From the IMG/VR virus record IMGVR_UViG_3300049442_000178: a stretch of DNA of 40,347 nucleotides; one strand, written 5' to 3'. A model generated the notes under the pieces. The model saw only the letters and a program-made list of their open reading frames with translations, made no database searches and had not been told where the DNA came from. Both the position numbers and the translations under genes were made by a program. Positions 9,688 through 28,934 of the stretch are shown here, in pieces (within the stretch, counting starts at the first letter, position 1; each line of letters opens with the position of its first letter). The stretch comes from a virus.

Positions 9688-10004
9688 CGAGTCAGCCGCT
9701 CTATCACCGCTACGATCCGGTCACCCAGCGATCGACCGAGATCGAAACCGACCCCGAGGCGGGCCTCGTCATCTGGCACACCCAAGGCGTGCGCGACATC
9801 GTCGAGGACTGCAAACGACAGGCCTCGAATTTCGACAAGCACGCGAAACGCCCCGACGGTTTCACCAAGGTGGCCAGCATCCCGCTGGTGATCTGGCGCC
9901 AACTGCAGAAGCTCGGAATCACCAATGATGAGAAGGCGCTGAATGCGTGGCTCGACAACCGCGACAATCGCGTTTTCCGCACCGATGATGGAAGGAAATT
10001 GTGA
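9684..10004 (+). CDS. Hypothetical virion-module protein (106 aa).
   Basis: GTGA overlap with the capsid gene. Protein-like composition. Confidence 0.6.
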   Translation: MTSQPLYHRYDPVTQRSTEIETDPEAGLVIWHTQGVRDIVEDCKRQASNFDKHAKRPDGFTKVASIPLVIWRQLQKLGITNDEKALNAWLDNRDNRVFRTDDGRKL

Positions 10005-10387
10005 TGGCATCCCAAACCAGCGAACACTCCCACCCCGTGGCGCGGCAGGGACCCGGCACCCACGCGGTTAAGCCCGCTCCCCAGGCCGTGCCGATCCTGG
10101 CCGACGATATCGACCCGGTGCTGCTCGTCCGCCTGTATCCGGACGAAGTGAACCTGGCCGGCGCTAAGACCGCGGCGCTCGCGGCCGGAAACGCAACCAT
10201 GGCCGCCGGCGCCGAATTGGAGTTGTCACGGATCGAGTTCGATCCCGCCGCAACCGGTGCGCAGCGAAAGGAGGCGGCCGTCGCAAGGGCGCAGGCCGGG
10301 GTCAAGGCCGCCGCAGAGCACGGGACGCCACAGGATAAGGAAGCGGCGGCAGCCGAACTCAAACGCGCCCAGGCGCTGCCAGGGTGA
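10004..10387 (+). CDS. Hypothetical virion-module protein (127 aa).
   Basis: TGATG overlap with the previous gene and GGAAGGA upstream. Ala-rich C-terminal helix. Confidence 0.55.
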   Translation: MASQTSEHSHPVARQGPGTHAVKPAPQAVPILADDIDPVLLVRLYPDEVNLAGAKTAALAAGNATMAAGAELELSRIEFDPAATGAQRKEAAVARAQAGVKAAAEHGTPQDKEAAAAELKRAQALPG

Positions 10388-10390
10388 TCA

Positions 10391-11023
10391 GTGGCGACCT
10401 ATGCGCAGCTGAAGCAGGACGTTGCCGCCTGGCTTAATCGCCGCGACATCAACCCACTCATCCCCGGCTGGGTGGCGATGGTCGACACCGAAATCGCGGA
10501 AACGCTGCGCGCCCGCTGCATGGTCGTGTTCGGAACGCAGGCCATCACCAGCGCCTATCTCACCATGCCGCCCGACTTCTGCACCATGGAGAGCATTCGC
10601 GACAATACCACCGGCGAACTGTTCATACTGAAGGACGAGTGGAGCGGGCACTGGGCCGCCGCCGACTTCAACACAGGGACCCCCTGTACCGCGTATCGGC
10701 TCCTGCACGACTGCATCGAGTTTCTGCCTCACCCGCCCGATCCGCTTCCCGCAGGGTGGCAACCGCAAACTGCTCGTATGGGCTGGTACGCGAGGCCGCA
10801 GCCCCTCGTGAACGACACCGACACGAACACGGTGCTGGAGGCGCTCTATGCGGTCTACCTGTTCGGAGTCTGCAAATACGGCGCGATGTTTGAACTGGAC
10901 GATGACCGTGCATCGCAGATGGATGCCGCGTGGCAGCAGGCCGTCACCAGGGCTAACATGTGGAAACAGCAGAGCGACTACAGCGGCGCGCCGTTCACGT
11001 CGGAACTAGCAACGGTATTTTGA
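10391..11023 (+). CDS. Putative head-tail adaptor / head completion protein.
   Basis: The N-terminus YAQLKQDVAAWLNRRDINPLIPGWVAMVDTEIAETLRARCM resembles adaptor proteins I have seen after capsid genes. The function is assigned from position and this motif only. Confidence 0.4.
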   Translation: MATYAQLKQDVAAWLNRRDINPLIPGWVAMVDTEIAETLRARCMVVFGTQAITSAYLTMPPDFCTMESIRDNTTGELFILKDEWSGHWAAADFNTGTPCTAYRLLHDCIEFLPHPPDPLPAGWQPQTARMGWYARPQPLVNDTDTNTVLEALYAVYLFGVCKYGAMFELDDDRASQMDAAWQQAVTRANMWKQQSDYSGAPFTSELATVF

Positions 11024-12431: not shown

Positions 12432-13916
12432 ATGCTCTATCGTCCGCGCATATGGCAGGGACAGCCGTGGCCCGGCGCGCCGATCGAGATCAATCGCTCG
12501 CATCCTCTGGCCCGCGCCGTCTCGTGTGTGACGCTGTTCGGCCAGAACGGTCGGGTGCGGACGCTGTTTCCGAACCAAAAGAGAAGCCTCGGTGCGGCTG
12601 ACTTACAGGGTGCCGCGACAATAACAAAGGCCGCCAAGGGTCTGGGTCTGCGCTGCACCGCAAACGGGCAGTTCTGGGGAAGCCCGGCGTCCACCAATCA
12701 ACCGAACGACGGCTCGATGACATACTCGCTGCCGACTGTCGGCAGCATCCTGATCCACCTCACGGCATCGCACGCTGCGAACAACAGCACGTTTAGGTAT
12801 CTGTTTGAGATGGGGCCCGACGGGCTGTTCGGGTCGCAAAACGGATCTTTCGTTCTGCTCCACTACAACGACAACACTATCTATTTCGGCTGGACGGCGA
12901 CGGTTGCCAATCGAGCGACCTATTTGAGCACCAGCGCAACCGATCCTTACGGTGCCGGTGATACGTTTACGATCGGCGGTTCATGGTCGGCCAGCCAGAC
13001 GCGCCTTTATTGCAAGGGGCGTTTTCTCGCGAACAATACGAGCGCACCGACGCCATGGAGCACGGCAGGTTCGTATCTTAAGGTCAACGGCGAAGTAAGT
13101 TTTTTCGCCAATCTCCCGTTTACACAGGCCGCAAACAACGGCGCAGTTTATTCGTTCGTGGTCTGGGATCGCGTCCTGACGGACGCCGAGTTCGCCGAGG
13201 CAAATGCCGACATCTACGCTTTCCTGCGTCCCGTCAAACGGTGGCGCGGAGCCACGCTACCGCCGAGTGGCTTCCCCGTCAGCATCACCGAAACCGGCGC
13301 TGCCGCCGACGCATTCTCGGTCACCGTCGCGGGGCCGTTCGCCGCTGCGATCACCGAGACGGGCGCGGCAACGGATGCCGCCACGCTCACCAGCGTTCGC
13401 AGCATTGCCATTGCCGAACCCGGCGCTGCAACCGATGCATTCGCCCTCACCAGCACCCGCGCCGTCGCCGTCGCCGAAACCGGAGCGGCGACCGAGACGT
13501 TCACCGCGGTCATCGCCGGCGCGGGGGCGGCTGTCGGCGTCACTGAGGCAGGCTCGGCTACCGATGCCTCGACACTTACCAGCACCCGCGCCGTTGCCCT
13601 CGCTGAGGCCGGCGCCGCCGCCGATAGCTTCGCCGCGGTCATCGCCGGCCAGTCTTTTGTCGCGCTCGCCGAAAGCGGTATCGCCTTCGACGCCTTCTCT
13701 GTGCAGATCTCCGGGATACCCGTCTATCCGGGAGGCTGGATGCCCGTGGAGGCCTGCAAAGCCGGCGCCCGGGCTTACGGGACCGGGCCTTACGGAATGG
13801 GGCTCTATTCACGCAATAGACCCGGCGACTGGCCTGCGCTGAAGCCGTGCGAACCGGGCATTTGGCAATTGATTCCGGGTTGCGGCGAACCCACGACAAC
13901 GAGGCAACGGCTATGA
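12432..13916 (+). CDS. Tail fibre-like protein with a LamG/concanavalin-like jelly-roll domain and a C-terminal array of 7 repeats of about 20-22 aa.
   Basis: LamG-like ending AVYSFVVWDRVLTDAEFAE. The repeats are I/V-[TA]-E-x-G-A-A-x-D-A-F/x-x-L/V-T. The C-terminus carries YGTGPYGMGLYSR. Confidence 0.6.
   Translation: MLYRPRIWQGQPWPGAPIEINRSHPLARAVSCVTLFGQNGRVRTLFPNQKRSLGAADLQGAATITKAAKGLGLRCTANGQFWGSPASTNQPNDGSMTYSLPTVGSILIHLTASHAANNSTFRYLFEMGPDGLFGSQNGSFVLLHYNDNTIYFGWTATVANRATYLSTSATDPYGAGDTFTIGGSWSASQTRLYCKGRFLANNTSAPTPWSTAGSYLKVNGEVSFFANLPFTQAANNGAVYSFVVWDRVLTDAEFAEANADIYAFLRPVKRWRGATLPPSGFPVSITETGAAADAFSVTVAGPFAAAITETGAATDAATLTSVRSIAIAEPGAATDAFALTSTRAVAVAETGAATETFTAVIAGAGAAVGVTEAGSATDASTLTSTRAVALAEAGAAADSFAAVIAGQSFVALAESGIAFDAFSVQISGIPVYPGGWMPVEACKAGARAYGTGPYGMGLYSRNRPGDWPALKPCEPGIWQLIPGCGEPTTTRQRL
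13284..13715 (+). repeat. In-frame tandem repeat, 7 units of 60-66 nt, inside CDS 12432..13916.
   Basis: Units start ITETGAAADAFSV, ITETGAATDAATL, IAEPGAATDAFAL, VAETGAATETFTA, VTEAGSATDASTL, LAEAGAAADSFAA, LAESGIAFDAFSV. Confidence 0.8.
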
Positions 13917-16900
13917 GCGGCAATTTCACGACCACACCGAACTACGGACTCTATAAGCCTACGCCCAACGCCGACTATGACGTGTGGGGCGACCATCTCA
14001 ACGCCAATGCGGATACGCTCGACTCGCTTATTGGAACTCTATCCGCCAGCACCGGCAGCGGCGTTTTCGGCGTAGACGCCTATGGCGCAAAGGGGGATCG
14101 CCAGCAGTATTCCGGCGCGCTGACGGTCGCGGCCGGAACCAATCCAACGCTCACTATCGCCGGCGCGGATCTGAGTGCGGTTGTGCCCGGGCAGCTCGTT
14201 GTGCTGCCGCTGGGCGGCGCTTCGGGCGCCGGGGTCAAGGCCGCGGTCGCGTCGGTCAATGTTGCCGCTCATCAGATCCTTCTTACGGGCAGTGTGGCCA
14301 CGGCGCTCACGGGCATTGCGTATCAGGCGAGCGGCAGCCCCGCCATTGCGATGACCGGCAGTCCCCCTGTTCCAATGGCGGGAACAGGCGTGACGCCACT
14401 GGATGTCTACACGCTGGTCGGTGGGGCATCCGTAGTCGCCGCTCAAGTGACGGTGCAAACCACGACGGTCGTCAAGGTCGTCGCAGTTAACACGGCTGGT
14501 TCCGGCGGTATCGCCGGCACCTATACTTTTATCGGCACATCGCCAGGGGCCACTAAATTCCAGTTTACAGGCACGATCAGTGGCGGTGTGCTCGCCGGAT
14601 TTTCCAATGTCACGCCGACGGTCGGTGGTTCCTATCAGAAAAACCCCCCTGCACTGCAGGCGGAGCCGATTGTTGACGTGAACGGGGTCAGCGGCCTGAC
14701 TGGTGCAACCGTCATCCTCTCAATGGGCGCGAACAGCACGCAAATTCAATTCCAGGCATCGACGATAGCGAACGTCACCAGAGCGGGCGGATACTCGACT
14801 CTCCCTCCCGATCTCGCTCACGTAGCCACAACGGGTCCGGGCACGGGCGTTGTCTTCGATATGACGGGGAGGTGGTTCGCGCCGACCGTGGTGATCGGCA
14901 CCGACAATGCGCCTGCCATCAACGCGGCCAGAAATGCGCTGGTGGCACAGGGGTTTGTGGATGCTGTCGGAAGGCCGGCCGCAAGAGCGACGCTCGTGTT
15001 TTCATCGGGTGGCGACTATCTCGTCAATGGCCCGCTGAATTTCACCAGCATTTCAAATCTGGCCATCAACGGCAATCGCGCCCGCATCTACTCGTGCGCA
15101 GCCGGCAAGCCGATATTCGATGCGCTTGATACCCAGAATGTCGCATTTACCAATATGTCGATCACTGGCGATGCCACGTTCCCGCCGCGCTGGGCGTTCC
15201 AGTATGGCCGGATTTCCAATACCATCGTTGCTCCAGCCAACACATTCGATCAGCTCTTCATCGGCGGGACATTCGTTGATGCCGGCTTCGACTACAATTG
15301 CTGCTCTGAAGCTATTAACATGGGGTTGGTACGAGGGAATTTTATCGCCCCTTACGGTCGCATCGAGGACGCTGCAAATTCCAGCTTCTGGAACGTTACG
15401 TCGGATTTCGTCACCAGCGCCATGACTGATGACCATGCGCAGCCTTTCGAGGGGGGCAATCCCGGTCAGGTGTCGCTGATCAATGAACATCCCAACGGTT
15501 GCGGCGTGTGGATGCTGGGCGGTTCGATCCATGCCTATGACAATTCCTATTTCTTCTGCCACCAGGATGTCTTCGTCATTATCGTGTCCTCGCTCGCTTC
15601 TGTTGCAACAGGGTTGCAGGCACCGAATTGCCACATCGAGGGGGCGCGCCGTGCAGTTGTGTTCCGTAAAGGACCGACAAGCGGCTACGGCGTTCCGCGG
15701 TTTGATCGGTTCGTATTCAGCGACAGCGGTTGTTATGTCACCGAGAACCTATTCGGCGTTACCGAGACGGGAATTGTCCATGTAAGAGTGTTTAACAGCG
15801 ACATAACCGTAGGGTTTGGCAGCCCCACCGCGGGGTATTTTGACGACGAAAGCATGGTGACGCACTCATCCATCATTGTAGGCGCGGATGGAGGGGTAGT
15901 CGGCCGGTGGCAGCAAAATGTTCCGGCGGATATGACTGGTCTCGCGCTCCTCACCGGCTCAGACGCTCCGGAGTTGTTCGCATACAACCTGGTGGCGCAA
16001 ACCGATACCGACATCAACGGTCAGCTATCGGTAAGCGGCCCGGCTCAGACGGCTGGTCAGTTGAGCGTCTCGGACGGCACGGTGGCATCGATCACCGTCA
16101 ATACGTTTGGTTTTTACACCAATCCCGATTATCCGACAGTGACGATTGATCCGTCGCCCGGCGTTTCGGCAATTGCGTCGGTCACTGCGATGCAGTGGCT
16201 CAGCGACATGCACGTCGTCGCAGGCGGATCAGGGTATGCCGTCAATAACATCGTCTCGTTTAATCCCGTGCACGGCACCCACAGCATCGTGGCCAAGCTG
16301 CGTGTCACGGGCGTGGACGGCTCCGGGGCCGTCACCTCGTTTGTCGGATATGATCCCGGCGCCTATTCGGCATATCCGCCTGTCGGGGCTACGACGACAA
16401 CGGGCGGCAGCGGTACCGGCCTCGTCATCAGTCCGCTGGACTGGGGGGTGCGTAAAGATGCGGCCGGAACCGGCGTCACGGTAACTACCCCTGGCAGTGG
16501 CTATACGTCGTTTCCGGATGCCACTTTCTCGGCTCCGGTGAACGGCGCGAGTGCAGCGCGCGGCACTGTCGTGATGGGCAAGGCCTGGTCAGCCGACAGC
16601 GCGAGCTCCGTCTTTAATGTTCCAACCACTGCGTCAGCCGATATCACTTGGACGAATGGCGGCCCGGTATCAAACCATGCCATCATTGGCGATGGCACGA
16701 ATGCCGGGTTCGTACAATTCAACGGTCCATCTGGTACCGGGGGGTTCTTGCAATTCCGTACAGGAGATTTTAGTGCTGGTTCAGCCGCTGTACGTTGGAT
16801 GCTGCAGAACAAGATTACCGAGGCCACGAGCAATGCCGGCTCAAATCTTGTCTTGTCTTCATTCTCTAATACGGGAACGTTCATCAGGGACACGTTTACC

Positions 16901-17074
16901 ATTACACGCAGTAATAGTAGCTTCCAGTTGTCTTCCAGCTTCAGCGTTTGGAATGCAACGCCTCCCGCTTCTAAACCCGCAGTGACAGGCTCGAGAGGAG
17001 GGAACGCTGCCGTCGCGTCATTGATCACCGCACTGGCAAGCTATGGCTTGATAACTGACAGCACGACGGCATGA
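13913..17074 (+). CDS. Tailspike / tail fibre with right-handed beta-helix (pectate-lyase-like) domains; possible polysaccharide depolymerase.
   Basis: ATGA overlap at 13913. N-terminus TTPNYGLYKPTPNADYDVWGDHLNANADTLDSL is the common fibre N-terminal adaptor motif. GVDAYGAKGDRQ is a pectate-lyase-type start. The later segment INAARNALV...LVFSSGGDYLVNGPLNFTSISNLAINGN is typical of beta-helix. 1053 aa. Confidence 0.7.
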   Translation: MSGNFTTTPNYGLYKPTPNADYDVWGDHLNANADTLDSLIGTLSASTGSGVFGVDAYGAKGDRQQYSGALTVAAGTNPTLTIAGADLSAVVPGQLVVLPLGGASGAGVKAAVASVNVAAHQILLTGSVATALTGIAYQASGSPAIAMTGSPPVPMAGTGVTPLDVYTLVGGASVVAAQVTVQTTTVVKVVAVNTAGSGGIAGTYTFIGTSPGATKFQFTGTISGGVLAGFSNVTPTVGGSYQKNPPALQAEPIVDVNGVSGLTGATVILSMGANSTQIQFQASTIANVTRAGGYSTLPPDLAHVATTGPGTGVVFDMTGRWFAPTVVIGTDNAPAINAARNALVAQGFVDAVGRPAARATLVFSSGGDYLVNGPLNFTSISNLAINGNRARIYSCAAGKPIFDALDTQNVAFTNMSITGDATFPPRWAFQYGRISNTIVAPANTFDQLFIGGTFVDAGFDYNCCSEAINMGLVRGNFIAPYGRIEDAANSSFWNVTSDFVTSAMTDDHAQPFEGGNPGQVSLINEHPNGCGVWMLGGSIHAYDNSYFFCHQDVFVIIVSSLASVATGLQAPNCHIEGARRAVVFRKGPTSGYGVPRFDRFVFSDSGCYVTENLFGVTETGIVHVRVFNSDITVGFGSPTAGYFDDESMVTHSSIIVGADGGVVGRWQQNVPADMTGLALLTGSDAPELFAYNLVAQTDTDINGQLSVSGPAQTAGQLSVSDGTVASITVNTFGFYTNPDYPTVTIDPSPGVSAIASVTAMQWLSDMHVVAGGSGYAVNNIVSFNPVHGTHSIVAKLRVTGVDGSGAVTSFVGYDPGAYSAYPPVGATTTTGGSGTGLVISPLDWGVRKDAAGTGVTVTTPGSGYTSFPDATFSAPVNGASAARGTVVMGKAWSADSASSVFNVPTTASADITWTNGGPVSNHAIIGDGTNAGFVQFNGPSGTGGFLQFRTGDFSAGSAAVRWMLQNKITEATSNAGSNLVLSSFSNTGTFIRDTFTITRSNSSFQLSSSFSVWNATPPASKPAVTGSRGGNAAVASLITALASYGLITDSTTA

Positions 17075-18299: not shown

Positions 18300-19939
18300 T
18301 GGCTCGGGTAACCCAGGCCCCGCCCCCTGGCGTGGTCCGCAATGCCACGCCGGAGGCGACGCCTGGGCGGTGGTTCGATGTGAATCACATTCGGTTCCGC
18401 GGCGGCCAGATCCAGCCCATCGGCGGCAACGTCGCGCTGCAGGATGACACGGGAAACGATCTATCGCTCCCGCTCCAGCCGGTCGGCGATCCCGATATTC
18501 CGCCCGGCGCCGACTGGCCGAGGGACATCCTGACATGGCACGACAACAGCCTCCCACCCGTGCGATGGGCTGCGATCGGCACGGACTACCGGCTCTACGC
18601 CTATCGCTTCGACACCCATGCGCGCTACGACATCACGCCGTCGGGTGTCGGCCGCCTTGATCCTCCCGGCGCGTTCGTCGGCTACGGGGCTGGCGATTAC
18701 GGCGAGGGCGACTACGGCACCAGCCGTGAGGGGGCCGACATTGGCGTCACCGACATCGCGGCCGTCATGGGCGACATTTGGAGCCTCGACACATTCGGAG
18801 AGGATCTGCTGATTGTGCCGACACAGGACGGGCACCTATACCGCTGGTCGCCGTCTCAGGCTTTATTCGATCCGGACGATTCGGCGCGATTGCCTGTTCT
18901 GAATACCCACGCACCCACCAACAACCGCGGGGTCATCGTCACCGACCAGCGTCATGTCGTGTTGCTCGGGGCCGGCGGCGACCCCCGCAAGATCGCCTGG
19001 AGCGACCAGGAAAACCCGGACGAGTGGGCGGCCGACGTTGCCAACCTCGCCGGCGACAAAATGCTGGTGACGCAGAGCGTCGTGATGACGGCGAAAAAAG
19101 TCAGCGACGGCATCCTGATATTCACCGGCAACGACGTTCACCGCATGACATACGTGGGCGCGCCGTACGCGTACGGCATCACGCAGGTCGGCTTTGCTTG
19201 TGGACCGCTGTCGCCGCGCGCGGTGGTGTCGATCGGGAGTGTGGTGGTTTGGCCCGGGGCGCAGACATTCTGGGGCTACAGCGGCAATGTGCAGCCGGTG
19301 CCGTGCGATGTCGGGGACTGGTTCTACTCGCTCCTGAACCGGGATTTTGTCGGCCGCGTGTTCGGTAGCCCTAACCCCGCATTCTCGGAGTTCTGGTGGG
19401 ACTGGCCGGATGGCGAATCGACCGAGTGCAGCCGGTATCTGATTTTCAACTATGGGGATGCTGCCAAGCCATGGGCGATCGGCACACGCAATCGCACCGC
19501 GGCTGATCCGTCCGGCACAATGGATAACCCGGTGCTGGGCGGTTATCTGGCGTCGTTCGTCCCTCCCCATCACGGCTCAATATTCCTCCATGAATTCGGC
19601 TGGACGAATAATGGCCAGGCACGCGCGGTTTCCCGAGGCATCTATGCCGAGAGCGGTGCAATTGCGCTGGGCGAAGGCGATAAGCGGGTCCACGTCAAGC
19701 AAGTGATATTCGATTCCGCGCCGCCGCAGGGTGCGGTCGTTTATTCCTTTTTCGTCCGCGAGGAGCCGGGCGACGATACCGGCGAGTTTCAAACCGAGTA
19801 CTATACCGACGTGCATGCCGGCCTGATGGACGTGCGATTCTCTGGACGGAGTGTTCGCATGCGCGTTGTGGCACTGCAGGATGGTCCGTGGTCGGTCGGT
19901 CGGCCGCGGCTCGACATCCGGCCTGGTGGACGGCGCTAA
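18299..19939 (+). CDS. Hypothetical large tail-module protein (546 aa).
   Basis: TGATG overlap with the fibre gene. Beta-rich, with W/G/D-rich repeats suggesting a propeller-like fold. Function not recognised. Confidence 0.55.
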
Positions 19940-20433
19940 TGGCGTTTGTTCGCAATCCGCCCGCGCCATTCATCGCCCCCGTATCCGGGGGCATGGAATT
20001 ACGACTGGCCCAGATAGCCGATGCGATAAACGGCAAGGAGGCGAGGGGCGCGCTGATAACTTATGCGCAGCTTCCACCGGAGGTTCGACAGGTCCCTATC
20101 CCGTTTGTCTTCGCTGGCAAACCAGCATCAGGCGCAGTCATCAACATTCCCATGCCGTGGGCGTTGACTGTTCCGGCGTCCCTGGCGGGTACGGTTGTTT
20201 ACGGTCTGACCCCGGCGACGGCAGACGCATTGTTCGTCTTAAATCGGATCATTGCGGGCGTGACGACCGTGCAGATAGGCACCATTACGATAACTTCCGC
20301 CTCGCATACCAGCGTCAGGCTCGCAGGCGGAGGCGGCCCGTCTTCGACCGGCGATGTGCTGCAGATGGTCGCACCTCCGCAGGATTCTACGCTCGCCGAC
20401 GTGGGGATAACGGTCCTCACTTATCGCACATAA
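19939..20433 (+). CDS. Hypothetical tail-module protein (164 aa).
   Basis: TAATG overlap at 19939. Protein-like composition, in contrast to the overlapping 325-aa frame. Confidence 0.55.
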
Positions 20434-20444
20434 GGAGAAACGCG

Positions 20445-20828
20445 GTGGCTTTCCAGTATGGCACGACCCTGCGCAACAATCAGGTGGCGCAGATACAGAC
20501 GACGATCGGCGTTAGCGGCACATTGAAAATATTCTCGGGCGCGGAGCCGGCCAATTGCGGAGCTGCCGATCCGACCGGATTGCTGGCAACGATCGTCCTG
20601 CCGGCGGCGTTTCTCACCTCGTCGGGCGGCGTTACGACCCTGGCCGGCACCTGGAGCGTTGCCGCTACCGGCACCGGCACGGCACAAAGTTTCCGCATGT
20701 ACGACGGGTCCCTCGTGTGTCATGTGCAGGGGAACACGACGACCGATCTGGTGCTGAACAACACATCAATAGCATCGGGTCAGACCGTTACGGTAACTGC
20801 ATTCACCGTCACGGCCGGCAACGCCTAG
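20445..20828 (+). CDS. Hypothetical tail-module protein (127 aa).
   Basis: GTG 20445 is preceded by AAGGAGA. The upstream part of ORF 19851..20828 is Arg/Gly-rich, off-frame-looking sequence. Confidence 0.55.
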   Translation: MAFQYGTTLRNNQVAQIQTTIGVSGTLKIFSGAEPANCGAADPTGLLATIVLPAAFLTSSGGVTTLAGTWSVAATGTGTAQSFRMYDGSLVCHVQGNTTTDLVLNNTSIASGQTVTVTAFTVTAGNA

Positions 20829-20836
20829 CCTGAATT

Positions 20837-22897
20837 ATGCCCACCGGCACCCTGAGTGCCGTACAGGCATCGCACCGTCTTTTTTCAGCTGGTGGTGCCC
20901 CGGCTCCTCTGCGGCCATTCGGCAAAGGGAGCTTCGGTCCCGGTCCCTACTCGCGGTACCTGCCATATATCATTGGCCAATTATCCAGGGCGCAGGCGAG
21001 TCAGACTTTTGTCGGTCGCGGCGCCCCCCGCGTTGGTGGCACTCTCTCTCGTCCGCAAGCAGCGCAGACATTGGCCTCGACAGGGATCATCGGTGTAATT
21101 GCCACCCTGTCCAGGGCCCAGGCGGCGCAGAGCCTGATTGGTGCCGGTGGTCCCCGCGCCAGCGGGGCACTCGTTGTCACCCAAGCCGGCGAGGCGCTCG
21201 TTGCCTCTGGCAGCCCTGCTGCAGTTGGTGCTTTGTCCAGATCCCAGGCGGCACAAAGCCTCATTGCTGCCGGCGGGCCACGAGCCAGCGGTTTGCTGAC
21301 GGCTACACAGGCCGGCCATGCTGTTATTGCCTCGGGTAGTTCTGCAGTCGTTGGCGTCCTGTCCCGCATCCAGGCGAATCATAGCCTGGCGGCTACGGGG
21401 CCGAATATCATTGCCGGGTCGGTGGTTTTAACCCAGGCGGCGCAGACTCTTGCTGCCGCTGTGATTTTGAACATCACCGCCACGCTCTCGCGGACGCAAG
21501 CAGCCGAGAGCGTGTCGGCGGCGGGCAGCGCCAGTATAGTCGGCATCCTGTCCAGACTGCAGTCGGCACAAGGCCTCGTCGCTGCCGGTGGTGTCCGTGT
21601 TGGTGCGACGCTGGTTGCTGTGCAGACAGCTCATAGCTTTGCCGCTGTTGGTGGCCCGCGCGCCAGCGGTGCGGTGACCGCGACACAGGCGGCTCATAGT
21701 TATGTCGGTTCCGGTGGTCCTCGCATAGGCGGTCTGCTCTCGGCTATCCAGGCCAATCACTCTCTTTCGGCTACGGGGCCGAATATCATTGCCGGCACGC
21801 TGCTTCTGAATCAGGCGCCACACAGCGCCGCCGCCTCGGGCGCTTTGCCAATTATTGGCAGGTTGGCCGGTGGTCCACGACCGTACGGCAAAGGAACGTA
21901 TGGCTCGGGCCCGTATTCACGCAACTTCGCTAAAACAGATCAGACTCTTGTTGCCGCCGGAAACGTTCGGACTGGCGGCATCCTGTCCCGCATCCAGGCA
22001 GCACAAAGTCTCGTCGCGGCAGGTGGTGTTCGTGTTGGTGGAACGCTAATTGTTGCGCAGGCGGCACAGCGCCTGGTTGCTGCAGGGATTTCGTTTGTTG
22101 GCAGCACGCTCGTGGCTACCCAGGCGGCGCAAACTCTTGCGGCGGCGGGCAATATCCGCATAGGCGGGGCGCTGGTTGCTACCCAGGCCAATCACTCTCT
22201 TGCAGCGACAGGGCCGAATATCATTGCCGGTGCGTTGCGGCTGACTCAGGCGCCGCACGCTTTCGCCGGCGTGGGGTCTACCGGCATCGTTGCCATGCTT
22301 ACGCGGACGCAGGCGGCACAGACGTTGACTGCAATCGGAATCGATCCTGTTGCCGGCATGTTGGCCAGAACGCAGGCGGCGCAGAGTCTCGTCGCCGCCG
22401 GGACTCTCCCGATCATTGCAAGGCTCGTCGGGTCACAGGACGATCAGATCCTATCCGCCGTCGCCGGCCTTGGCACTGGCAGCATACTGATTGCCAACCA
22501 GCAGGATCACACCCTGATTGCCGCCGGCGGTTTTCGCGTGGATGGAATGCTGGGCCGCACGCAGGCGAATCACACGTTGCAGGCCAGCGGTCCAGGGATC
22601 ACAGCCGGCGGGCTCATTGCTGCTCAGGCGCTGCATACTCTGACGGCTGCCGGCGCCACCGGCAATGCCGGCACGCTCTCTCGTCTGCAGGCCGCGGAGG
22701 TGCTGACGGCAACCGGGTTATCCTCGCTCGGGGCTGTCTTGAATATTATACAGTCCAGTCAGACGCTGATATGCTCCGCGGTGTCCGGGATCGAGGGTGG
22801 CGCAGTCGTGACTCAGGGCAACCACACATTGACGGCGGAGGGGCTGACCGAAATGGTGGCCGCACCGGAACAATTACGAGCCTTGGTGCTGGCATGA
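20837..22897 (+). CDS. Repeat protein made of about 30 perfectly phased 21-residue units in two halves; putative fibre/solenoid virion protein.
   Basis: Manual parse gave 1 N-terminal unit, then FGKGSFGPGPYSR, 14 units, YGKGTYGSGPYSR, and 15 units. Consensus L-x3-Q-A-x-[QH]-x-L-x-A-x-G-x5-G-x. Confidence 0.7.
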   Translation: MPTGTLSAVQASHRLFSAGGAPAPLRPFGKGSFGPGPYSRYLPYIIGQLSRAQASQTFVGRGAPRVGGTLSRPQAAQTLASTGIIGVIATLSRAQAAQSLIGAGGPRASGALVVTQAGEALVASGSPAAVGALSRSQAAQSLIAAGGPRASGLLTATQAGHAVIASGSSAVVGVLSRIQANHSLAATGPNIIAGSVVLTQAAQTLAAAVILNITATLSRTQAAESVSAAGSASIVGILSRLQSAQGLVAAGGVRVGATLVAVQTAHSFAAVGGPRASGAVTATQAAHSYVGSGGPRIGGLLSAIQANHSLSATGPNIIAGTLLLNQAPHSAAASGALPIIGRLAGGPRPYGKGTYGSGPYSRNFAKTDQTLVAAGNVRTGGILSRIQAAQSLVAAGGVRVGGTLIVAQAAQRLVAAGISFVGSTLVATQAAQTLAAAGNIRIGGALVATQANHSLAATGPNIIAGALRLTQAPHAFAGVGSTGIVAMLTRTQAAQTLTAIGIDPVAGMLARTQAAQSLVAAGTLPIIARLVGSQDDQILSAVAGLGTGSILIANQQDHTLIAAGGFRVDGMLGRTQANHTLQASGPGITAGGLIAAQALHTLTAAGATGNAGTLSRLQAAEVLTATGLSSLGAVLNIIQSSQTLICSAVSGIEGGAVVTQGNHTLTAEGLTEMVAAPEQLRALVLA
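20981..22860 (+). repeat. 63-nt in-frame tandem repeat array with a higher-order period of about 378 nt.
   Basis: The 20-mer gggccgaatatcattgccgg recurs at 21398, 21776 and 22211. The first spacing is 378, which is 6 x 63. Confidence 0.8.
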
Positions 22898-23265
22898 GCG
22901 ACGACGAGCGCAGGGACAGATTCGAGCGGGCACTGGCCGACGGCGGATGCACGCATTCGGTTGCCGATGTGCTCCAGCTCATCAAGGCCGGCCGGGCGCA
23001 GCTCTGGGAGCGTGGCGACGGGACGATCGTCACCGAGGTTCACACGTTCCCGCGGCTCAAGAGCGTGCATTACTGGCTTGCCTCCGGCGAACTGCACGAT
23101 TGCCTCGGCCTGCAGGACGAGATCGACGAGTGGGCGCGAGGCGAGGGCTGCGAGATAGCGACGATCGTAGGCCGGCGCGGCTGGGGACGGGCGGCGAAGG
23201 GCTGGACGCTCGACGGGTATCACTATCGCAAGCCGCTCGGACATTTTTGGAGTGATCGGCCATGA
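22894..23265 (+). CDS. Hypothetical protein (123 aa).
   Basis: ATGA overlap at 22894 and ATGA overlap at the 3' end. No domain recognised. Confidence 0.55.
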   Translation: MSDDERRDRFERALADGGCTHSVADVLQLIKAGRAQLWERGDGTIVTEVHTFPRLKSVHYWLASGELHDCLGLQDEIDEWARGEGCEIATIVGRRGWGRAAKGWTLDGYHYRKPLGHFWSDRP

Positions 23266-24398
23266 GCACCAGCGGCACCCCGATAACCACGACATCCACG
23301 AGCAGCGGCGGCACGGCGATACCGGACTGGATGACCCTTGCCGCGCAGAGAGCGGTGGGAACGGCGACGGATCTGAGCCAGCGGCCCTACACGCCCTACA
23401 CGGGCGAGCAGGTGGCGCCGACGACCGCCGATACGAACGCGGCATACCAGGCCGTGCGGAACATGCAGGGCGCAGGCGCGCCGGCCTACACCGCCTCCGA
23501 GAACGCCTATACCGGACTGCTCGGCAGTGCCGTGCCGATGACGCCGGACGCGGTCAGGAACAACGCCGCGAATCTCTACGGCGGCTTTGCGCAAGGTGTT
23601 TTTACGCCGGCCATGCAGATGCTGGCACCCTATGTCGGCACCGGCCCGGCGACGGCGGCGGGGGTGGGCGCCAATGCACAGGCGCTGATGAGCCCGTACA
23701 CGGCGAACGTCATCGATCCGACGCTGGCGGCGGGCGAGCAGGCGCGACGGCTGGCGCGGCAGACGATTGCCGGGAACGCGAATAACGCCGGCGCGTTCGG
23801 CGGTTCGCGGCAGGGCGTGACCGAGGGCGTGTCGGACGCGCAGATGGCACTCGGGACGCAGCAGCAAATCGGAAATATGCTGACGGGCGGGTGGAATGCA
23901 GCGCTTACGCCGGCCTATGGTCTCGCGACGACCGGAGCGGCGCAGGGGCTGTCGGCTCGGAACACGCTGACCGGGCTGTTGGCTCCCGGCTACCAGAACG
24001 CGCAGGCGACGGCCTATGGCATGGGGGCTAATAATCTCCAGGCAGGCCTTGCCGCGGCAGCGGGTCTGCCGGGTGTCGCGACGGCGGCCCAGGCCTACGG
24101 CCAGAAGGATGCCGGGTTGATGCAGGCGATCGGCACGGCCCAGCAGGGGCAGCAGCAGAATGTTGACACCGCAGCCATGGGCGACTTCTACGCCGCGCAG
24201 AACTGGCCGGTGCAGAATCTGGATTTGTTGACGAGCACGCTGGGCGGCGTGCCCTATTCCACCAGCGGCACCAGCACGGGCACAGCGCAGCAGAGCACGA
24301 CGCAAAACGTACCGGGGTCAATTCTCGGCGGGACCGCGCAGGCCCTGGCCATTGCCAAGGGGGCGAAAGACGTTGGCTTGTTAGGGTGGTTAGGCTGA
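23262..24398 (+). CDS. Putative internal virion / ejection protein (378 aa).
   Basis: Ala/Gly/Gln/Thr-rich. Lies within a block of large proteins that ends with the SLT-domain protein. Assigned from position only. Confidence 0.4.
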   Translation: MSTSGTPITTTSTSSGGTAIPDWMTLAAQRAVGTATDLSQRPYTPYTGEQVAPTTADTNAAYQAVRNMQGAGAPAYTASENAYTGLLGSAVPMTPDAVRNNAANLYGGFAQGVFTPAMQMLAPYVGTGPATAAGVGANAQALMSPYTANVIDPTLAAGEQARRLARQTIAGNANNAGAFGGSRQGVTEGVSDAQMALGTQQQIGNMLTGGWNAALTPAYGLATTGAAQGLSARNTLTGLLAPGYQNAQATAYGMGANNLQAGLAAAAGLPGVATAAQAYGQKDAGLMQAIGTAQQGQQQNVDTAAMGDFYAAQNWPVQNLDLLTSTLGGVPYSTSGTSTGTAQQSTTQNVPGSILGGTAQALAIAKGAKDVGLLGWLG

Positions 24399-24832
24399 TG
24401 GCGTTTTTCGGTTTGTTCGGTAGCCCTGACAGCCCGTACAGCACGGGGAGTCAGTACACGTCCTATGTTCCGGGCGATCCCCAATTTGCGGCGGGGTTCG
24501 CAAACCCCGGGGCTCTGGCTACCGCGGCCAATGCCGCGGGGCGGCCGGGGACAGAGGATCTCAACCAGACCGACACCAGTTGGCTCAGCAAGGCCAGCAG
24601 CCCCGCCCTCGTGCAGGCGCTGCAGGACGCCGCCAAGAGCAGCGTGTTCAATCCGAAGGACCCGCCACCCCTGGCCGCGGCAGCTATCCCGACGGGAAAG
24701 CCTGGCGCTCCTGCGCGTCCGCAGTCGCTCGACGCGCTCGTGCAGTTCCTGGAGAAGCAGCGGGCGGCATACGGCACGCTGAGCGGCCAGCCGGTGCAAC
24801 GGGCACAGACGCTCGGGCTTTTGGGGTTCTGA
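24398..24832 (+). CDS. Hypothetical protein (144 aa).
   Basis: TGATG overlap at 24398. No domain recognised. Confidence 0.5.
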   Translation: MAFFGLFGSPDSPYSTGSQYTSYVPGDPQFAAGFANPGALATAANAAGRPGTEDLNQTDTSWLSKASSPALVQALQDAAKSSVFNPKDPPPLAAAAIPTGKPGAPARPQSLDALVQFLEKQRAAYGTLSGQPVQRAQTLGLLGF

Positions 24833-24834
24833 TC

Positions 24835-27099
24835 ATGGCAGACGACACGCAGCCGCCGACCGATCCGAACGTGCTGAATGCGGCCTTGCAGTACCTCATC
24901 GGACAACGGCAACAGGCGGCACCCTCTCCGGCTCCTGTAGACCGCTCCATCATTTCGCTGCTCGGCGAGGCTGTGGGCGGCGGAAGCATGGGCTTGTCGC
25001 CGGCGGATCGGGAGGCGGCCGGCACGCGGGCACTGCTCAACTTCGGTGCGAATCTGTCGGCGGCGAGCGGGCCCAGCACGATACCGCGGTCGTTCGGCCA
25101 GATATTTGCGCAGGGCGTGGGCGGGGCGCAGCAGAGCCTGGCCGGGAGCGAGGCCGTGGGCGCGTCTCGCCTGGCCGCGCAGCAGGCCTACGAGGAGAAG
25201 CAGCAGGAGCTGCGGCTCAACGCCATCAAGGAGGCGCTGCCGTTCCTGAAGATGACGCAAGGCGCTGCTATCCCCAACACGCTCGTTTCTGGCGCCGGAC
25301 CACGCACCAGCATCGCCGCGGTCGATGTGCCGGCCGGCAACTACGGTGCCGGTGGCCCCGGCGCTGACGCGAAGGTGCCGGCCGAATGGCTGCCCTATTA
25401 TCAGGAGGCGTCGGCGCGCACAGGCATTCCTGTGGATGTGCTGATTGCCCAGGCGCGGCAGGAGAGCGGGTTCAACGCCAACGCTACCGGCAAGGCCGGC
25501 GAGATCGGCGTACATCAGATCAAGCCGACGACGGCGGCCGATCCCGGGCTCGGTGTAAAGCCGCTTGATCCCGCGCTGCTCAAGGACCCGCGCGCCAACA
25601 TCAACTTCGCTGCGGACTACCTCAAGGCGCACTTGCCTCCCGGCGCCGATCCTACAGACCCGGCCGCGATCCGTCTGGCGCTCAAGGGCTACAACGGCGG
25701 TGGCGATCCGAACTATGTGGCGAACGTCACGCGCTACCTGCCCGTTCCGGCCGCTCCGAAGGCCGCTGACGGCACATCTACCGCGGCCCCGTACAAAGTG
25801 GCCTCGACAGGCGCGACCGCCCCGCCGACCTCCACCGCGCCTCCTGCGCCGGGCAGCGTGGCGGCAGAGACCGCAGGGCTGGTGATGCCTCCAGGCGCAA
25901 CGCCCCCAGCAGCTCCGGCACTACCAACCGACGGCAAGCTGACGTTTGAACAGTTCCAGGCATTGCATCCAACAACGATCGACCCGGCCAGCTACACGGT
26001 GACGCCGCCCAATCTGGACGCGCTTCTGAGCGCCCGCGATCAAGCCAAGCGGCAATTGGATCTGGCCAATCGGGGCATCGCCGGCGATCCGGACAAGGCG
26101 CTGACCGCCTACACTGCGGCCGCTAAGGATGTTACTGACGCGCAGGCGGCGGCTACGGTGGAATCGGCAAAACTGCGGCAGAAAATGCAGGAGGATGCGC
26201 GCACTCACCAGCGCGCACTCTACACAGATGAGATGAAGCGGCAGCAGGAAATTGAAGAGGCCGACAAACAGCGGGGGGCGGCGGTCGCACTGAAGACGCA
26301 GGAAGGCCAGCAGGCGATCGATCTGGCCAAGGTGCAGGCTGGCCAGACGTATCACCAGAAGATTGCCGAGGAAGCGGCAAGCGCCGCGCAGAAAAACACA
26401 ATCGAACCGATGTCCGCGGCCGGCTTGAAAGCGCATCAGATGAATCTGGGCCTGTCACAGATGCTGCCATTGCTGGCGGATCTGCCAAAGGGCGGCGGGA
26501 TATTAGGCTCCGTGCTGGACGCTCACCCCGATCTGGCGCCGCTGTTTAGCACCGCAGGCATCCTGAACGATAAACAGGCCGACGCCGTGCGCCTGATTAA
26601 CGGGCTGGTGGCGAACATCAGCACCGAGATGAAACCGGCCGGCCTCGGTGCGCTCCGGGAATATGAATGGGATGCTTTCAAAGCGCAATTGCCGAACATG
26701 CTCTCGACTCCGGCCGGACAGCAGAAGGCGGTTGCGATGCTGATGAATATGAACAACCGCATTCAGCAGGAAGGTTCTTGGATGAACAGCTATTTCAACC
26801 GCAAGATCCCGGATGAAACGACGCTGGGCAGAACCGTCTCAGCGCACAATCTCGAAACCGACAATCCAAGCGAAACCGTGCAGCAGCGTATGGACAGGGA
26901 ACTAGGACCGATCATCCCGTCATACAGCGGCCCTCCCAGCGGCAGCGGACAGGCGCAGTGGGAACAATCGCTCCCGCCCGGCAAGCCTTACTACAAGAAG
27001 TGGGCGCTGCCAGATCCACAGCGCCCTGGTCAGCCACTGCGTGACGAGCGCGGCAACATCAAGACAACGACGACAATGGAAGTTCGGCCATGGCAATAG
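24835..27099 (+). CDS. Internal virion protein with a lytic transglycosylase (SLT) domain.
   Basis: The ARTGIPVDVLIAQARQESGFNANATGKAGEIGVHQIKPTTA ... ALKGYNGGGDPNYV segment fits the SLT motifs E-S, GxxQ and Y. The catalytic-type Glu codon is at 25462-25464. A long coiled-coil-like segment follows. 754 aa. Confidence 0.8.
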   Translation: MADDTQPPTDPNVLNAALQYLIGQRQQAAPSPAPVDRSIISLLGEAVGGGSMGLSPADREAAGTRALLNFGANLSAASGPSTIPRSFGQIFAQGVGGAQQSLAGSEAVGASRLAAQQAYEEKQQELRLNAIKEALPFLKMTQGAAIPNTLVSGAGPRTSIAAVDVPAGNYGAGGPGADAKVPAEWLPYYQEASARTGIPVDVLIAQARQESGFNANATGKAGEIGVHQIKPTTAADPGLGVKPLDPALLKDPRANINFAADYLKAHLPPGADPTDPAAIRLALKGYNGGGDPNYVANVTRYLPVPAAPKAADGTSTAAPYKVASTGATAPPTSTAPPAPGSVAAETAGLVMPPGATPPAAPALPTDGKLTFEQFQALHPTTIDPASYTVTPPNLDALLSARDQAKRQLDLANRGIAGDPDKALTAYTAAAKDVTDAQAAATVESAKLRQKMQEDARTHQRALYTDEMKRQQEIEEADKQRGAAVALKTQEGQQAIDLAKVQAGQTYHQKIAEEAASAAQKNTIEPMSAAGLKAHQMNLGLSQMLPLLADLPKGGGILGSVLDAHPDLAPLFSTAGILNDKQADAVRLINGLVANISTEMKPAGLGALREYEWDAFKAQLPNMLSTPAGQQKAVAMLMNMNNRIQQEGSWMNSYFNRKIPDETTLGRTVSAHNLETDNPSETVQQRMDRELGPIIPSYSGPPSGSGQAQWEQSLPPGKPYYKKWALPDPQRPGQPLRDERGNIKTTTTMEVRPWQ

Positions 27100-28934
27100 A
27101 AGCGTCAGCTTCGGACGATCTTCCGATTCTGCCGGCCGAGGCGGTCCCGGCCTCGCCGTCGATTCCCGAGCAGCAACGCCAGCACGCGGCGGAGCAGCCG
27201 CCGGCCGCTCTCTCCGGCGACGATAGTTTCCCGCTTGTGCCGCCGTCCCCGCCCCCGCGCAGTTTCCTCAACCGATCATGGAGCACACTTCAGGACGCGG
27301 CCGCCGCACTCACACCGAACATGGACCCGAACGCGACGCCGGGACCAGGCAAGACATTAGCCGACAGCGTGGTGCGTGGTGTTGCCGATGTAACCCATCC
27401 ATCGATTGCGTGGCTCGCACGTCAGTTCGGCAACGACGAGCCAACGCAGCGGACTGAAGCCTGGCGCAAGGATTTCGAGGACAAGTATCGGGACAGCTCG
27501 TTGGCCACGGCAGGGCGCGTCGCCGGGCAGATGATAGGAGCCGCGCCGGTAATGATGGCCGGTGGTATGGCGGCTCGTGCTGCCGCGGAAGCGGTGCCGG
27601 CCATTGCGCCTGCGTTGACGTTCCTGGGCGGCGGCGGCAGCGCTGGGGCTGACGCAGGCCTTGTGACACGGCTGTTAGCACGCGCAGGCTCGACGGCTGC
27701 TCAGGGAGCGATACAGGGCGGCGTCCAGGGTGGGCTGACCGCCGGCCCGGACCAGTCAACGCTGAGCGGTGCGGTAAGCGGTGCGGAGACGGGCGCCGCA
27801 CTGGGGCCGGTGGCCGCGGCTGTCGGCAAGCTGCTGAGTTACCCGGTGCAGGGGTTGGCGGCCTTGAGAGGCACGCTCCCGAATCTGGTGCAAAAAGATA
27901 TCGCGCCACTAGCGGATAAATTTGTCAATGAATACAAAATCCAGCTTGACCCATCGCAACTGACCACAAACCCGTGGCTCAGACAGGTGACGGATCAATT
28001 AAGTAAACTGCCTGCCGCGGGTTCGGCTGAGCGGATAGCACAGGGCCGCTTGCAGTGGCAGAAGGCGCTGGCGGGAGAAATGGGAGAATCCACCGATAGC
28101 GGCATCACGCACAACGTGATGGCGAGCGCGCGCGATCGTATTCAGCCGGGCATGGACGCGATCGTGAACAACAACGTGGCGAAAGCGGATGGGGGTTTTT
28201 ACCGGGACCTTGCTCAGCACGCTCAGGAGCTGCCGAAGTTCGGCCCGACTGCGGACCAGCTGGCGCCGATCAAGGCGCAATTCCAGAACGTCATGAACGC
28301 AGTTAAAGACGGAAAGATTGACGGCCCGACCTACCAGAACCTGACGCAAAAAGGAGGGCCGCTAGACACCGCCATCGGCAGCACGGACCCGTTGGTGAGC
28401 GGATTCGCCATGAAGCTGAAAGACGCGGTGGACGGTGCGTTCCAGCGCTCGGTTACACCGGAAACCGCGGCGAAATGGCAGCAACTGCGCTACCAGTATC
28501 GGGTGATGAAGACGATTGAGCCTCTGGTCGAGCAGAAGGGGCTGACTGGGGACATTGATCCAAATGCGTTGCTTCAGCGGGTGCGGGCTCAGTCGGCGAA
28601 ATTCGACAGCAGCAATCAAGGACTGGCATACACAGGTGGCGGCAAGCTCGGTGATCTGGCCTACGGCGGGCAGATATTTTTTGGGAAGCCGGCGGACAGC
28701 GGCACGGCTGGGCGTACGTGGGCGCAGCACTTCGCGGACAAGCCTTTGGCAGCAATAGCAACATCGCCGGTTTTACTTGCCAACCGAGGTCTGCAGTCGG
28801 TCGTGCGTAATCCAGCGACAGGCGCACGGATGATTGCGAACACTATAAACCCGCCCGCCCCGGTGCCGAACCTGGTGCAGCAATTCGGCGTTCCGGCCGT
28901 TGTCTCGACCCGGAATCTTTTGGGCATCCAGTAG
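27090..28934 (+). CDS. Putative internal virion / ejection protein (614 aa).
   Basis: Overlaps the SLT protein's 3' end and is the last gene of the late block. Has a Gly/Ala-rich hydrophobic stretch. Function assigned from position only. Confidence 0.4.
   Translation: MAIEASASDDLPILPAEAVPASPSIPEQQRQHAAEQPPAALSGDDSFPLVPPSPPPRSFLNRSWSTLQDAAAALTPNMDPNATPGPGKTLADSVVRGVADVTHPSIAWLARQFGNDEPTQRTEAWRKDFEDKYRDSSLATAGRVAGQMIGAAPVMMAGGMAARAAAEAVPAIAPALTFLGGGGSAGADAGLVTRLLARAGSTAAQGAIQGGVQGGLTAGPDQSTLSGAVSGAETGAALGPVAAAVGKLLSYPVQGLAALRGTLPNLVQKDIAPLADKFVNEYKIQLDPSQLTTNPWLRQVTDQLSKLPAAGSAERIAQGRLQWQKALAGEMGESTDSGITHNVMASARDRIQPGMDAIVNNNVAKADGGFYRDLAQHAQELPKFGPTADQLAPIKAQFQNVMNAVKDGKIDGPTYQNLTQKGGPLDTAIGSTDPLVSGFAMKLKDAVDGAFQRSVTPETAAKWQQLRYQYRVMKTIEPLVEQKGLTGDIDPNALLQRVRAQSAKFDSSNQGLAYTGGGKLGDLAYGGQIFFGKPADSGTAGRTWAQHFADKPLAAIATSPVLLANRGLQSVVRNPATGARMIANTINPPAPVPNLVQQFGVPAVVSTRNLLGIQ

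Follow-up and report, generated by a model that had tools for sequence, protein, structure and literature searches.

Classical repeat shafts of fibrous proteins include the triple beta-spiral of adenovirus and reovirus (15-residue repeat), the triple beta-helix of T4 gp5 and gp12 and the beta-helix of filamentous haemagglutinin (repeat of about 20 residues). In other phage appendages small proteins are strung as dimers on an extended chain. The whisker fold class of Bas63 and Sf14 consists of dimers on an extended rope which completes their incomplete sandwiches, and in GP4 a rope protein of its own carries the Fiber-1 dimers and interlocks with an immunoglobulin (Ig)-like collar (PMC12609058). 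The garland proteins of phage Milano share the fold of T4 gp8 and A511 gp105, and in A511 the extended BW3 chain strings together three such dimers (PMC10811340). In this work we have analysed a stretch of viral DNA of 40,347 nucleotides (nt), the IMG/VR record IMGVR_UViG_3300049442_000178, here called the window, and in it the gene of a protein of 686 amino acids (aa) which consists almost entirely of 21-residue repeats. Two small genes precede it, A and B. We show that the repeat defines a genuine, widespread and unnamed family of phage fibre proteins. With about even confidence we propose that the protein is the string, or rope, of a beads-on-a-string fibre, with B as the bead and an anchor formed jointly by protein A and the C-terminal tail.

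The 21-residue repeat and its family

An open reading frame (ORF) check of the window returned the 686-aa frame with the limits and strand given in Table 1. The self-identity of the protein is 0.346 at a lag of 21 residues, 0.337 at lag 42 and 0.30 at lag 126, against a maximum of 0.154 in 200 shuffles. Using a profile built on 28 hand-cut units, we located 30 units between residues 6 and 676 (1 + 14 + 15). Their spacing is exactly 21 in 27 of 29 cases, and the remaining two spacings, 43 and 40, each fall at a head motif. Within the 28 units Q5 is invariant (28/28), L1 (25/28), A6 (22/28), Q/H8 (25/28), L10 (21/28), A12 (22/28) and G14 (25/28) are near-invariant, and G20 is found in 19/28. A sequence-only reading of the same DNA had described this protein as a 686-aa frame with about 30 units of 21 residues, and most of its description stands: the eight consensus positions are each kept in 19 to 28 of the 28 units, there are two head motifs (GKGxFGxGPYSR), a 20-mer recurs at 21398, 21776 and 22211, and the count of 14 and then 15 consecutive units was right, with one further unit, unit 0, to be added before them. 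Two of its statements hold in part. The units had been called perfectly in-phase, which is true of the 27 spacings of exactly 21, but the registers of blocks 1 and 2 differ by 19 residues, so that the array has no common register. Similarly, the proposed super-repeat of 378 nt fits copies one and two of the duplicated block, but the third copy of the 20-mer lies 435 nt further on.

The units have diverged considerably. Their identity to each other is only about 35–47% in the protein and 60–83% in the DNA, and because of this low identity between units Tandem Repeats Finder detected no array at the DNA level. In block 1 the mean unit identity is 0.388 at a unit-lag of 1, 0.437 at lag 2 and 0.47 at lag 6, and these super-periods are backed by the DNA repeat families D2 and D3. 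The protein has no globular domain, and only 7% of its residues are charged and 2% aromatic. At unit position 8, histidine replaces glutamine in 12/28 units of the window, mostly as QANHSL or QAAHS, whereas family-wide its share at this position is 8%; the variation may be one that responds to metal or pH. The whole gene was recovered with zero DNA differences on contigs from two sequencing runs, SRR26075068 and SRR26075050, both of them short-read assemblies. A collapse of the array shared by both assemblies is unlikely, because the units are so diverged. The second head motif is contained, as YGKGTYGSGPYSRN, in a 21-residue linker, with YGKGTYGSGPYS at residues 350–361. The relative L101 retains both end pieces, both head motifs (the first as YGKGPYSYGPYSRY) and the 14-unit block 1, and its block 2 has 6 units as compared with 15. 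A GKGxFGxGPYS head motif was found only in the lineage of the window and, as a variant, in L014, and the presence of an aromatic/Gly head motif does not follow that of protein A. The arrays of two other relatives, P0021 and P0080, are interrupted by aromatic PF(S/A)xDFSxDFG inserts, which recall the FGKGSFGPGPYS head motifs of the window and the unit of a protein of Agrobacterium phage 7-7-1, 7-7-1_000108.

Is this repeat known from elsewhere? Searches of Pfam, PHROGs and NCBIfam with the 21-residue repeat gave nothing significant; phmmer of the repeat protein against the PDB returned noise only (armadillo designs, E > 0.1) and a triple-unit profile of 60 sequences had no match there. For an idealised array the beta-helix repeat Fil_haemagg of Pfam stayed below threshold (17.2 bits, cut-off 21.5 bits). 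Among 50,697 phage records nothing was found by tblastn with the repeat protein or by megablast with 24 kb of the window, a result to which the low-complexity filter may contribute. Nor did we find a tail fibre with a 21-residue repeat described in the literature. Judged by sequence, the repeat thus belongs to no described family, as the sequence-only reading had supposed. The search with the 21-residue profile that it had proposed did reveal a large group of relatives: an exhaustive HMMER search gave 586 representative clusters at E <= 1e-3, of which 147 reach E <= 1e-10. In the 164 members examined, 660 spacings of 21 residues compare with 180 of 22–25, and the median unit number is 8. The protein of the window is the extreme of these 164, with 30 units and repeats making up 92% of it; in no other member does this share exceed 59%.

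Many relatives carry additional domains. Laminin_G_3 is present in 14/54 members, and F5/8-type-C (discoidin), CBM96, SPRY, Ig/TIG and DUF4082 domains also occur; going by these domain matches, the partners are carbohydrate-binding or adhesion modules, and the repeat usually comes together with domains of lectin type. Two architectures were each seen once. In P0015 the units are followed by a C-terminal S74 intramolecular chaperone, and in P0080 an array at residues ~3–490 is followed by a Gp77 collar domain at 614–695, with a B gene 2.4 kb upstream. The order of array and C-terminal Gp77 in P0080 shows the same polarity as the rope-collar fusion of Bas63. Neither domain was detected in the repeat protein of the window, in which Pfam gave no Peptidase_S74, and Gp77 (PF23148) had no match in this protein or in A. 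The family occurs in structural modules of phages with unrelated virion types, namely E217/Pa193-like myoviruses, SU10-like podoviruses and the phiM5-like podovirus of the window. The syntenic slot is a receptor-binding one, which in phage phiM5 is taken by a tailspike that was detected in virions. From this slot and the structural-module contexts of the relatives it follows that the repeat protein is a fibre component.

Protein B, its periodic partners and the putative anchor

B ends at position 20828 and the repeat gene begins at 20837, so that the two are direct neighbours. B matches phrog_3758, annotated as a virion structural protein; no Pfam family was found for it. We collected 966 relatives of B, the best 120 of which are 82–94% identical to it. 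When the window is compared with L101, B (6001–6384 in L101) is 94% identical, the flanking genes 65–79% and the repeat protein 54%. More than 120 distinct 90%-clusters of high identity (82–94%) span both podo- and myovirus backbones. Either the conservation of B is unusually strong for a small structural gene, or B is frequently transferred horizontally.

The AlphaFold2 model of B (predicted local distance difference test, pLDDT, 77) has a helix at residues 11–24 and nine strands forming a beta-sandwich. Its best Foldseek match was 9rkv_A, the garland protein of 7-7-1 (E 3e-5, template modelling score, TM, 0.55–0.59), to which the sequence identity is only about 20%. The whisker chains K, L and M of Bas63 (9mt4) were also matched (E 0.016–0.1, prob 0.96–1.0), with further matches to the Sf14 neck (9c39_K) and A511 gp105 (6hhk). 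A profile of B found the PDB chain 44nx_B (E 3.9e-9), 7-7-1_000105 (E 1.3e-11) and 7-7-1_000103 (E 0.006). By sequence, protein B is matched best by this chain of 44nx, a "Structural protein" of 147 aa; we found no paper for this entry. 7-7-1_000103 is the gene of 9rkv_A, the small chain of the 7-7-1 tail-fibre model, and immediately follows the gene of the long tail fibre, while 7-7-1_000105 (L017 7888–8319, 143 aa, "structural protein") is closer to B than this published garland protein. B-like proteins have been annotated or detected as virion structural proteins in Caulobacter phage Seuss (gp033), in Vibrio CKB-S1 and in 7-7-1 (000103 and 000105). An hhalign comparison of the B profile with Gp80 (PF23140, the fiber I protein of GP4) indicated no relationship (prob 0.1). 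On the strength of its model, B belongs to the bead fold class, which comprises the whisker, garland and gp105 proteins.

We asked how regularly B-like genes are accompanied by a repeat gene. In complete IMG/VR loci an ORF with at least three units was present in 17/21 cases when B identity was at least 70%, in 3/8 at 55–70% and in 1/11 at 40–55%, nearly always downstream of B and on the same strand, and both genes were present in all eight contexts that we inspected individually. Detection by the hidden Markov model (HMM) of the unit thus falls from 81% to 38% and 9% with B identity, but periodicity persists. In a test which does not depend on the unit sequence (period of 20–22 or 40–43 residues, z > 6, start at most 3.5 kb from the B-like gene), a periodic protein was found downstream of the B-like gene in 55/64 loci and in 2/74 in the upstream control. 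Cultured phages are among them. Gp039 of Seuss (L009 12177–12983), downstream of gp033, contains 12 x 21 residues (VSIAASLSKTMSSMSRSITMA), and Pan4_26 of Pseudanabaena phage Pan4 (L010 10337–12229), downstream of Pan4_24, about 13 x 20 residues (GAVRVAGTASGSLPLTGSAT); both are annotated as hypothetical proteins. In 7-7-1 (L017, JQ312117) we found two such proteins, both structural and encoded a short way downstream of 000105, namely 000108 (9851–10873) with about 12 x 21 residues (GDWEYPxYS) and 000109 (L017 10867–12294) with 5 x 21 residues and the tail RRGVMVVQTL. The unit sequences of all four are unrelated to those of the window. The period is therefore conserved while the sequence diverges along with B, as would be expected if the size of the bead sets the period. 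In a 2025 cryo-electron microscopy (cryo-EM) paper on 7-7-1, the proteins 000105, 000108 and 000109 are unassigned and the proteins of the capsid fibres are stated to be unknown. It could be that 000105 together with 000108 and 000109 are components of the long curly capsid fibres of this flagellotropic phage.

The opposite neighbour of B may have its own role. Homologues of protein A adjoin the repeat-protein genes in L001, L002, L004 and L005 (E 1e-28 to 1e-34). The repeat protein of the window ends in an RxΦΦΦA-COOH tail, which it has in common with P0003, P0005, P0006, P0007, P0008, P0012, P0022, P0024 and L101; in the AlphaFold2 model residues 678–685 form a short helix of low confidence. 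This tail is present in 8/8 loci with A and in 0/15 without A (Fisher p = 2e-6, uncorrected for phylogeny). Protein A itself showed no similarity to Pfam, PDB or Gp77 and nothing was found for it in the phage records. In other lineages the arrays end in ...HWTGSEWRPT, ...GWWSGSIP or ...YYYRRRMRR, or in a fused Gp77 domain. The perfect co-occurrence of A with its tail and the different tails elsewhere suggest that anchor modules are interchangeable between lineages.

A proposed string of beads and the alternatives

The near-obligatory periodic partner downstream of B, the fold of B and the association of the tail with A lead us to favour the beads-on-a-string reading. According to this model, the approximately 30 tandem units would be serial docking sites for B. 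In each unit B would capture the conserved half, LxxTQAxQTLxAxG, as a strand, leaving the variable half as a spacer, and B, a helix and an incomplete sandwich, would be threaded end to end as dimers whose beta-sandwiches the chain completes. Attachment to the particle would fall to the RxΦΦΦA tail and protein A. The chain would run with its N-terminus outward, the end at which relatives carry lectin-type host-binding domains. Block duplication would readily alter the number of units and hence the length of the fibre. Could a unit of 21 residues hold more than one chain? The rope of Bas63 uses about 45 residues for two dimers, so a unit could bind either a monomer or a dimer of B. The binding of B to the units, its stoichiometry, the site of attachment on the virion and the host ligand are all points which we infer. 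The sequence-only reading did not take in the two neighbours, the conserved, bead-like B upstream and A with its C-terminal counterpart, and both point to beads on a string, not to an autonomous fold.

Several observations weigh against this model. The binding of B to the units is deduced from synteny and analogy, and the counts of co-occurrence are uncorrected for shared ancestry. B has no sequence similarity to Gp80 of GP4, and its structural matches to the whiskers are moderate (TM 0.5–0.63). Residues 370–500 of the repeat protein are predicted as regular beta structure with two strands per unit (pLDDT about 75), which hints at an autonomous fold, and P0015 pairs the units with a C-terminal S74 domain, a typical mark of fibres that fold by themselves as trimers. 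The solved proteins nearest to B, those of 7-7-1 and Milano, are arranged as a garland around folded fibres, and no rope is described (for Milano, PMC10811340). Thirty beads or bead dimers would make a fibre of about 100–200 nm, which is long for a podovirus of 40 kb. In favour of the model there is a parallel with GP4. Ralstonia phage Gervaise encodes directly after its fibre I (Gp80) gene, between this and the nearby adaptor (Gp77) gene, a Gly/Ala-rich protein of 325 aa, gp17 (L018 9364–10341), with a significant 20-residue period, the equivalent of gp79 of GP4. These proteins are probably the GP4 rope; a literature search, from which the GP4 structure paper itself was absent, gave no description of this rope.

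It is quite possible, if in our view somewhat short of an even chance, that the repeat protein is instead an autonomous fibre shaft, in which the units fold by themselves, probably as a trimer, into a beta-structured type not described before, and B is a garland-like or connector accessory. The two short strands per unit in the AlphaFold2 model would fit such a shaft, as would the S74 chaperone behind the units of P0015, typical of trimeric fibres, and the position of the 7-7-1 and Milano garland proteins on folded fibre tips. The top Foldseek matches of the full-length monomer, although not significant (best E 0.32), are beta-solenoids, and the sub-threshold Pfam match is to the beta-helix repeat of filamentous haemagglutinin. 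Inside such a shaft the invariant Q5 and Q/H8 could stack as polar ladders. However, the monomer model is poor overall (mean pLDDT 47.6) and no solved fold matches it; it does not show the self-folding solenoid or beta-helix suggested in the sequence-only reading. An autonomous shaft also leaves unexplained why the partners of B-like proteins keep a period of 20–21 residues when their sequences are unrelated, and why the unit sequence co-varies with B. In addition, an array followed by a C-terminal collar, as in P0080, parallels the Bas63 rope.

Fibre chaperones, such as Tfa and gp38 of lambda, Mu and T4, are likewise typically encoded by a small gene in tight synteny with that of the fibre. 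B might accordingly be an assembly chaperone of the Tfa type, absent from the mature fibre, and the repeat protein a conventional side fibre; the synteny and the far stronger conservation of B than of the fibre would suit this. We consider it improbable, since B-like proteins are annotated or detected as structural parts of virions (phrog_3758 and the Seuss, Vibrio and 7-7-1 proteins named above) and virion models include the solved proteins nearest to B (9rkv and the "Structural protein" of 44nx). Moreover, the usual place of a fibre chaperone gene is downstream of the fibre gene, whereas B lies upstream in nearly all loci.

The sequence-only reading had left the choice between a fibre, a tail needle and an ejection conduit. 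The first of these has held up, given the phiM5 slot and the lectin, S74 and adaptor domains of the relatives. A needle, an internal virion protein or a component of the ejection conduit is very improbable. The gene does immediately precede those of the ejection and internal-virion proteins (23262–28934), but relatives occur in myovirus and SU10-like podovirus modules away from ejection genes, they bear lectin, discoidin, CBM and Ig domains as well as the fibre-tail adaptor domain, the syntenic gene of phiM5 is a tailspike, and searches of Pfam, PHROG and PDB linked the protein neither with ejection proteins nor with gp26, the needle of P22. Short reads can mis-assemble repetitive DNA, but with an identical gene in two runs, diverged units, a frame open over 2 kb in DNA of 64% guanine + cytosine (GC), hundreds of homologues and a close relative with the same layout and a different unit number, there is next to no chance that the array is an assembly artefact or non-coding low-complexity DNA.

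Returning to the beads-on-a-string model, we may ask how far it extends. Perhaps a rope with a period of about 21 and a bead of the B type are a general, modular and so far unnamed route to long flexible fibres in podo-, myo- and siphoviruses, in which the size of the bead fixes the period, the number of units the length and the interchangeable end modules the site of attachment. We offer this only tentatively, and in this breadth it is rather unlikely to hold. If the rope model is true, the length of a fibre is encoded digitally by the number of units, and lectin modules and anchors can be swapped, which would be of use for the study of host-range evolution and for the engineering of phage fibres. 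The repeat and B families, with 586 and more than 960 clusters in public data, are all labelled "hypothetical", and once they are recognised as a fibre module many phage genomes could be annotated. As a sequence rule for finding such fibres, one may look for a gene with a period of 20–21 residues behind a small conserved gene, and this rule supplies candidates for fibres which are seen by cryo-EM and whose proteins are unknown, for example the capsid fibres of 7-7-1. The most useful result to follow is that B-like genes are so generally paired with genes of about 21-residue period, in the cultured phages Seuss, Pan4 and 7-7-1 too.

Layout of the locus and comparison with known fibres

The window represents a phage genome of about 40 kb, 64% GC, with the order terminase, portal, scaffold, capsid, tail and ejection genes. 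The positions of the features discussed here are collected in Table 1. The stop codon of a 546-aa P22-gp10-like gene overlaps the ATG of A (TAATG, 19937–19941), and the stop of the repeat gene overlaps the start of the next gene (ATGA, 22894–22897), whose product of 123 aa has only a weak match to phrog_22172. These overlaps are consistent with translational coupling along a tail-fibre-ejection operon. Upstream of the gp10-like gene lie the genes of a 289-aa protein with a tail-collar domain (PF07484, 17430–18299) and of a 1075-aa protein without a Pfam match (13847–17074), and in the corresponding region of L101 (94–2700) there is an 868-aa beta-helix (NosD-like) protein. In view of these three proteins, the phage probably carries a second, conventional receptor-binding protein.

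Table 1. Features of the repeat-protein locus (positions in the window; residues refer to the repeat protein)
Feature	Position	Strand	Remarks
Gene A, putative anchoring partner of the C-terminal tail	19939..20433	+	164 aa
Gene B, putative bead	20445..20828	+	127 aa; GTG start after GGAGA
Repeat protein gene, putative rope	20837..22897	+	686 aa, 30 units of 21 residues
Unit 0 (residues 6-26)	20852..20914	+	unit HMM match projects to residue 6
Head motif 1, FGKGSFGPGPYSRY (residues 28-41; FGKGSFGPGPYS 28-39)	20918..20959	+	
Block 1, 14 in-phase units (residues 49-342)	20981..21862	+	two-unit and six-unit super-periods
Linker with head motif 2, LAGGPRPYGKGTYGSGPYSRN (residues 343-363)	21863..21925	+	
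Block 2, degenerate unit and 14 in-phase units (residues 364-676, or 362-676 in the unit layout)	21926..22864	+	
C-terminal tail PEQLRALVLA (residues 677-686), putative anchoring strand	22865..22894	+	
Downstream 123-aa gene	22894..23265	+	start overlaps repeat gene stop (ATGA)

With Fiber I of GP4 and the whiskers of Bas63 and Sf14, the locus shares a small, putative bead protein, predicted to consist of an N-terminal helix and a sandwich, and the adjacency of the bead and string genes. The fusion of the array to a C-terminal Gp77 in the relative P0080 is the counterpart of the rope-collar fusion of Bas63. In contrast to GP4, no homology of B with Gp80 is detectable in the sequence, and the window has no Gp77 domain, in place of which the C-terminal peptide and the unrelated protein A appear to be used. 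The scale is different too, with about 30 units in the window against 2 dimers in Bas63 and 5 in GP4. The unit sequence, TQAxQTL, bears no relation to theirs, and, unlike in these phages, the string is interspersed with lectin-type domains in many relatives.

Among solved proteins, B is closest to the garland proteins of 7-7-1 (000103, which is 9rkv_A; paralogue 000105) and Milano (gp125 and gp127). Like the putative bead, these are parts of the virion encoded beside a fibre gene; they are dimeric, contact the fibres and are structurally related to T4 gp8 and A511 gp105, the BW3TFN connectors. They differ from what we propose for the window in that they decorate folded fibre tips, and no rope has been reported for them. 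Classical repeat shafts resemble the array in their short, strict units with conserved small and hydrophobic positions, a glycine at the turn and two predicted strands per unit. Here, unlike in those shafts, the period is 21, the core is TQAxQTL and a small partner gene is nearly obligatory, and the array matches them neither by sequence nor by profile and, in structure, not significantly. Whichever of the two mechanisms applies, string or self-folding shaft, the locus encodes a phage appendage of a known kind in a variant form and not a categorically new system.

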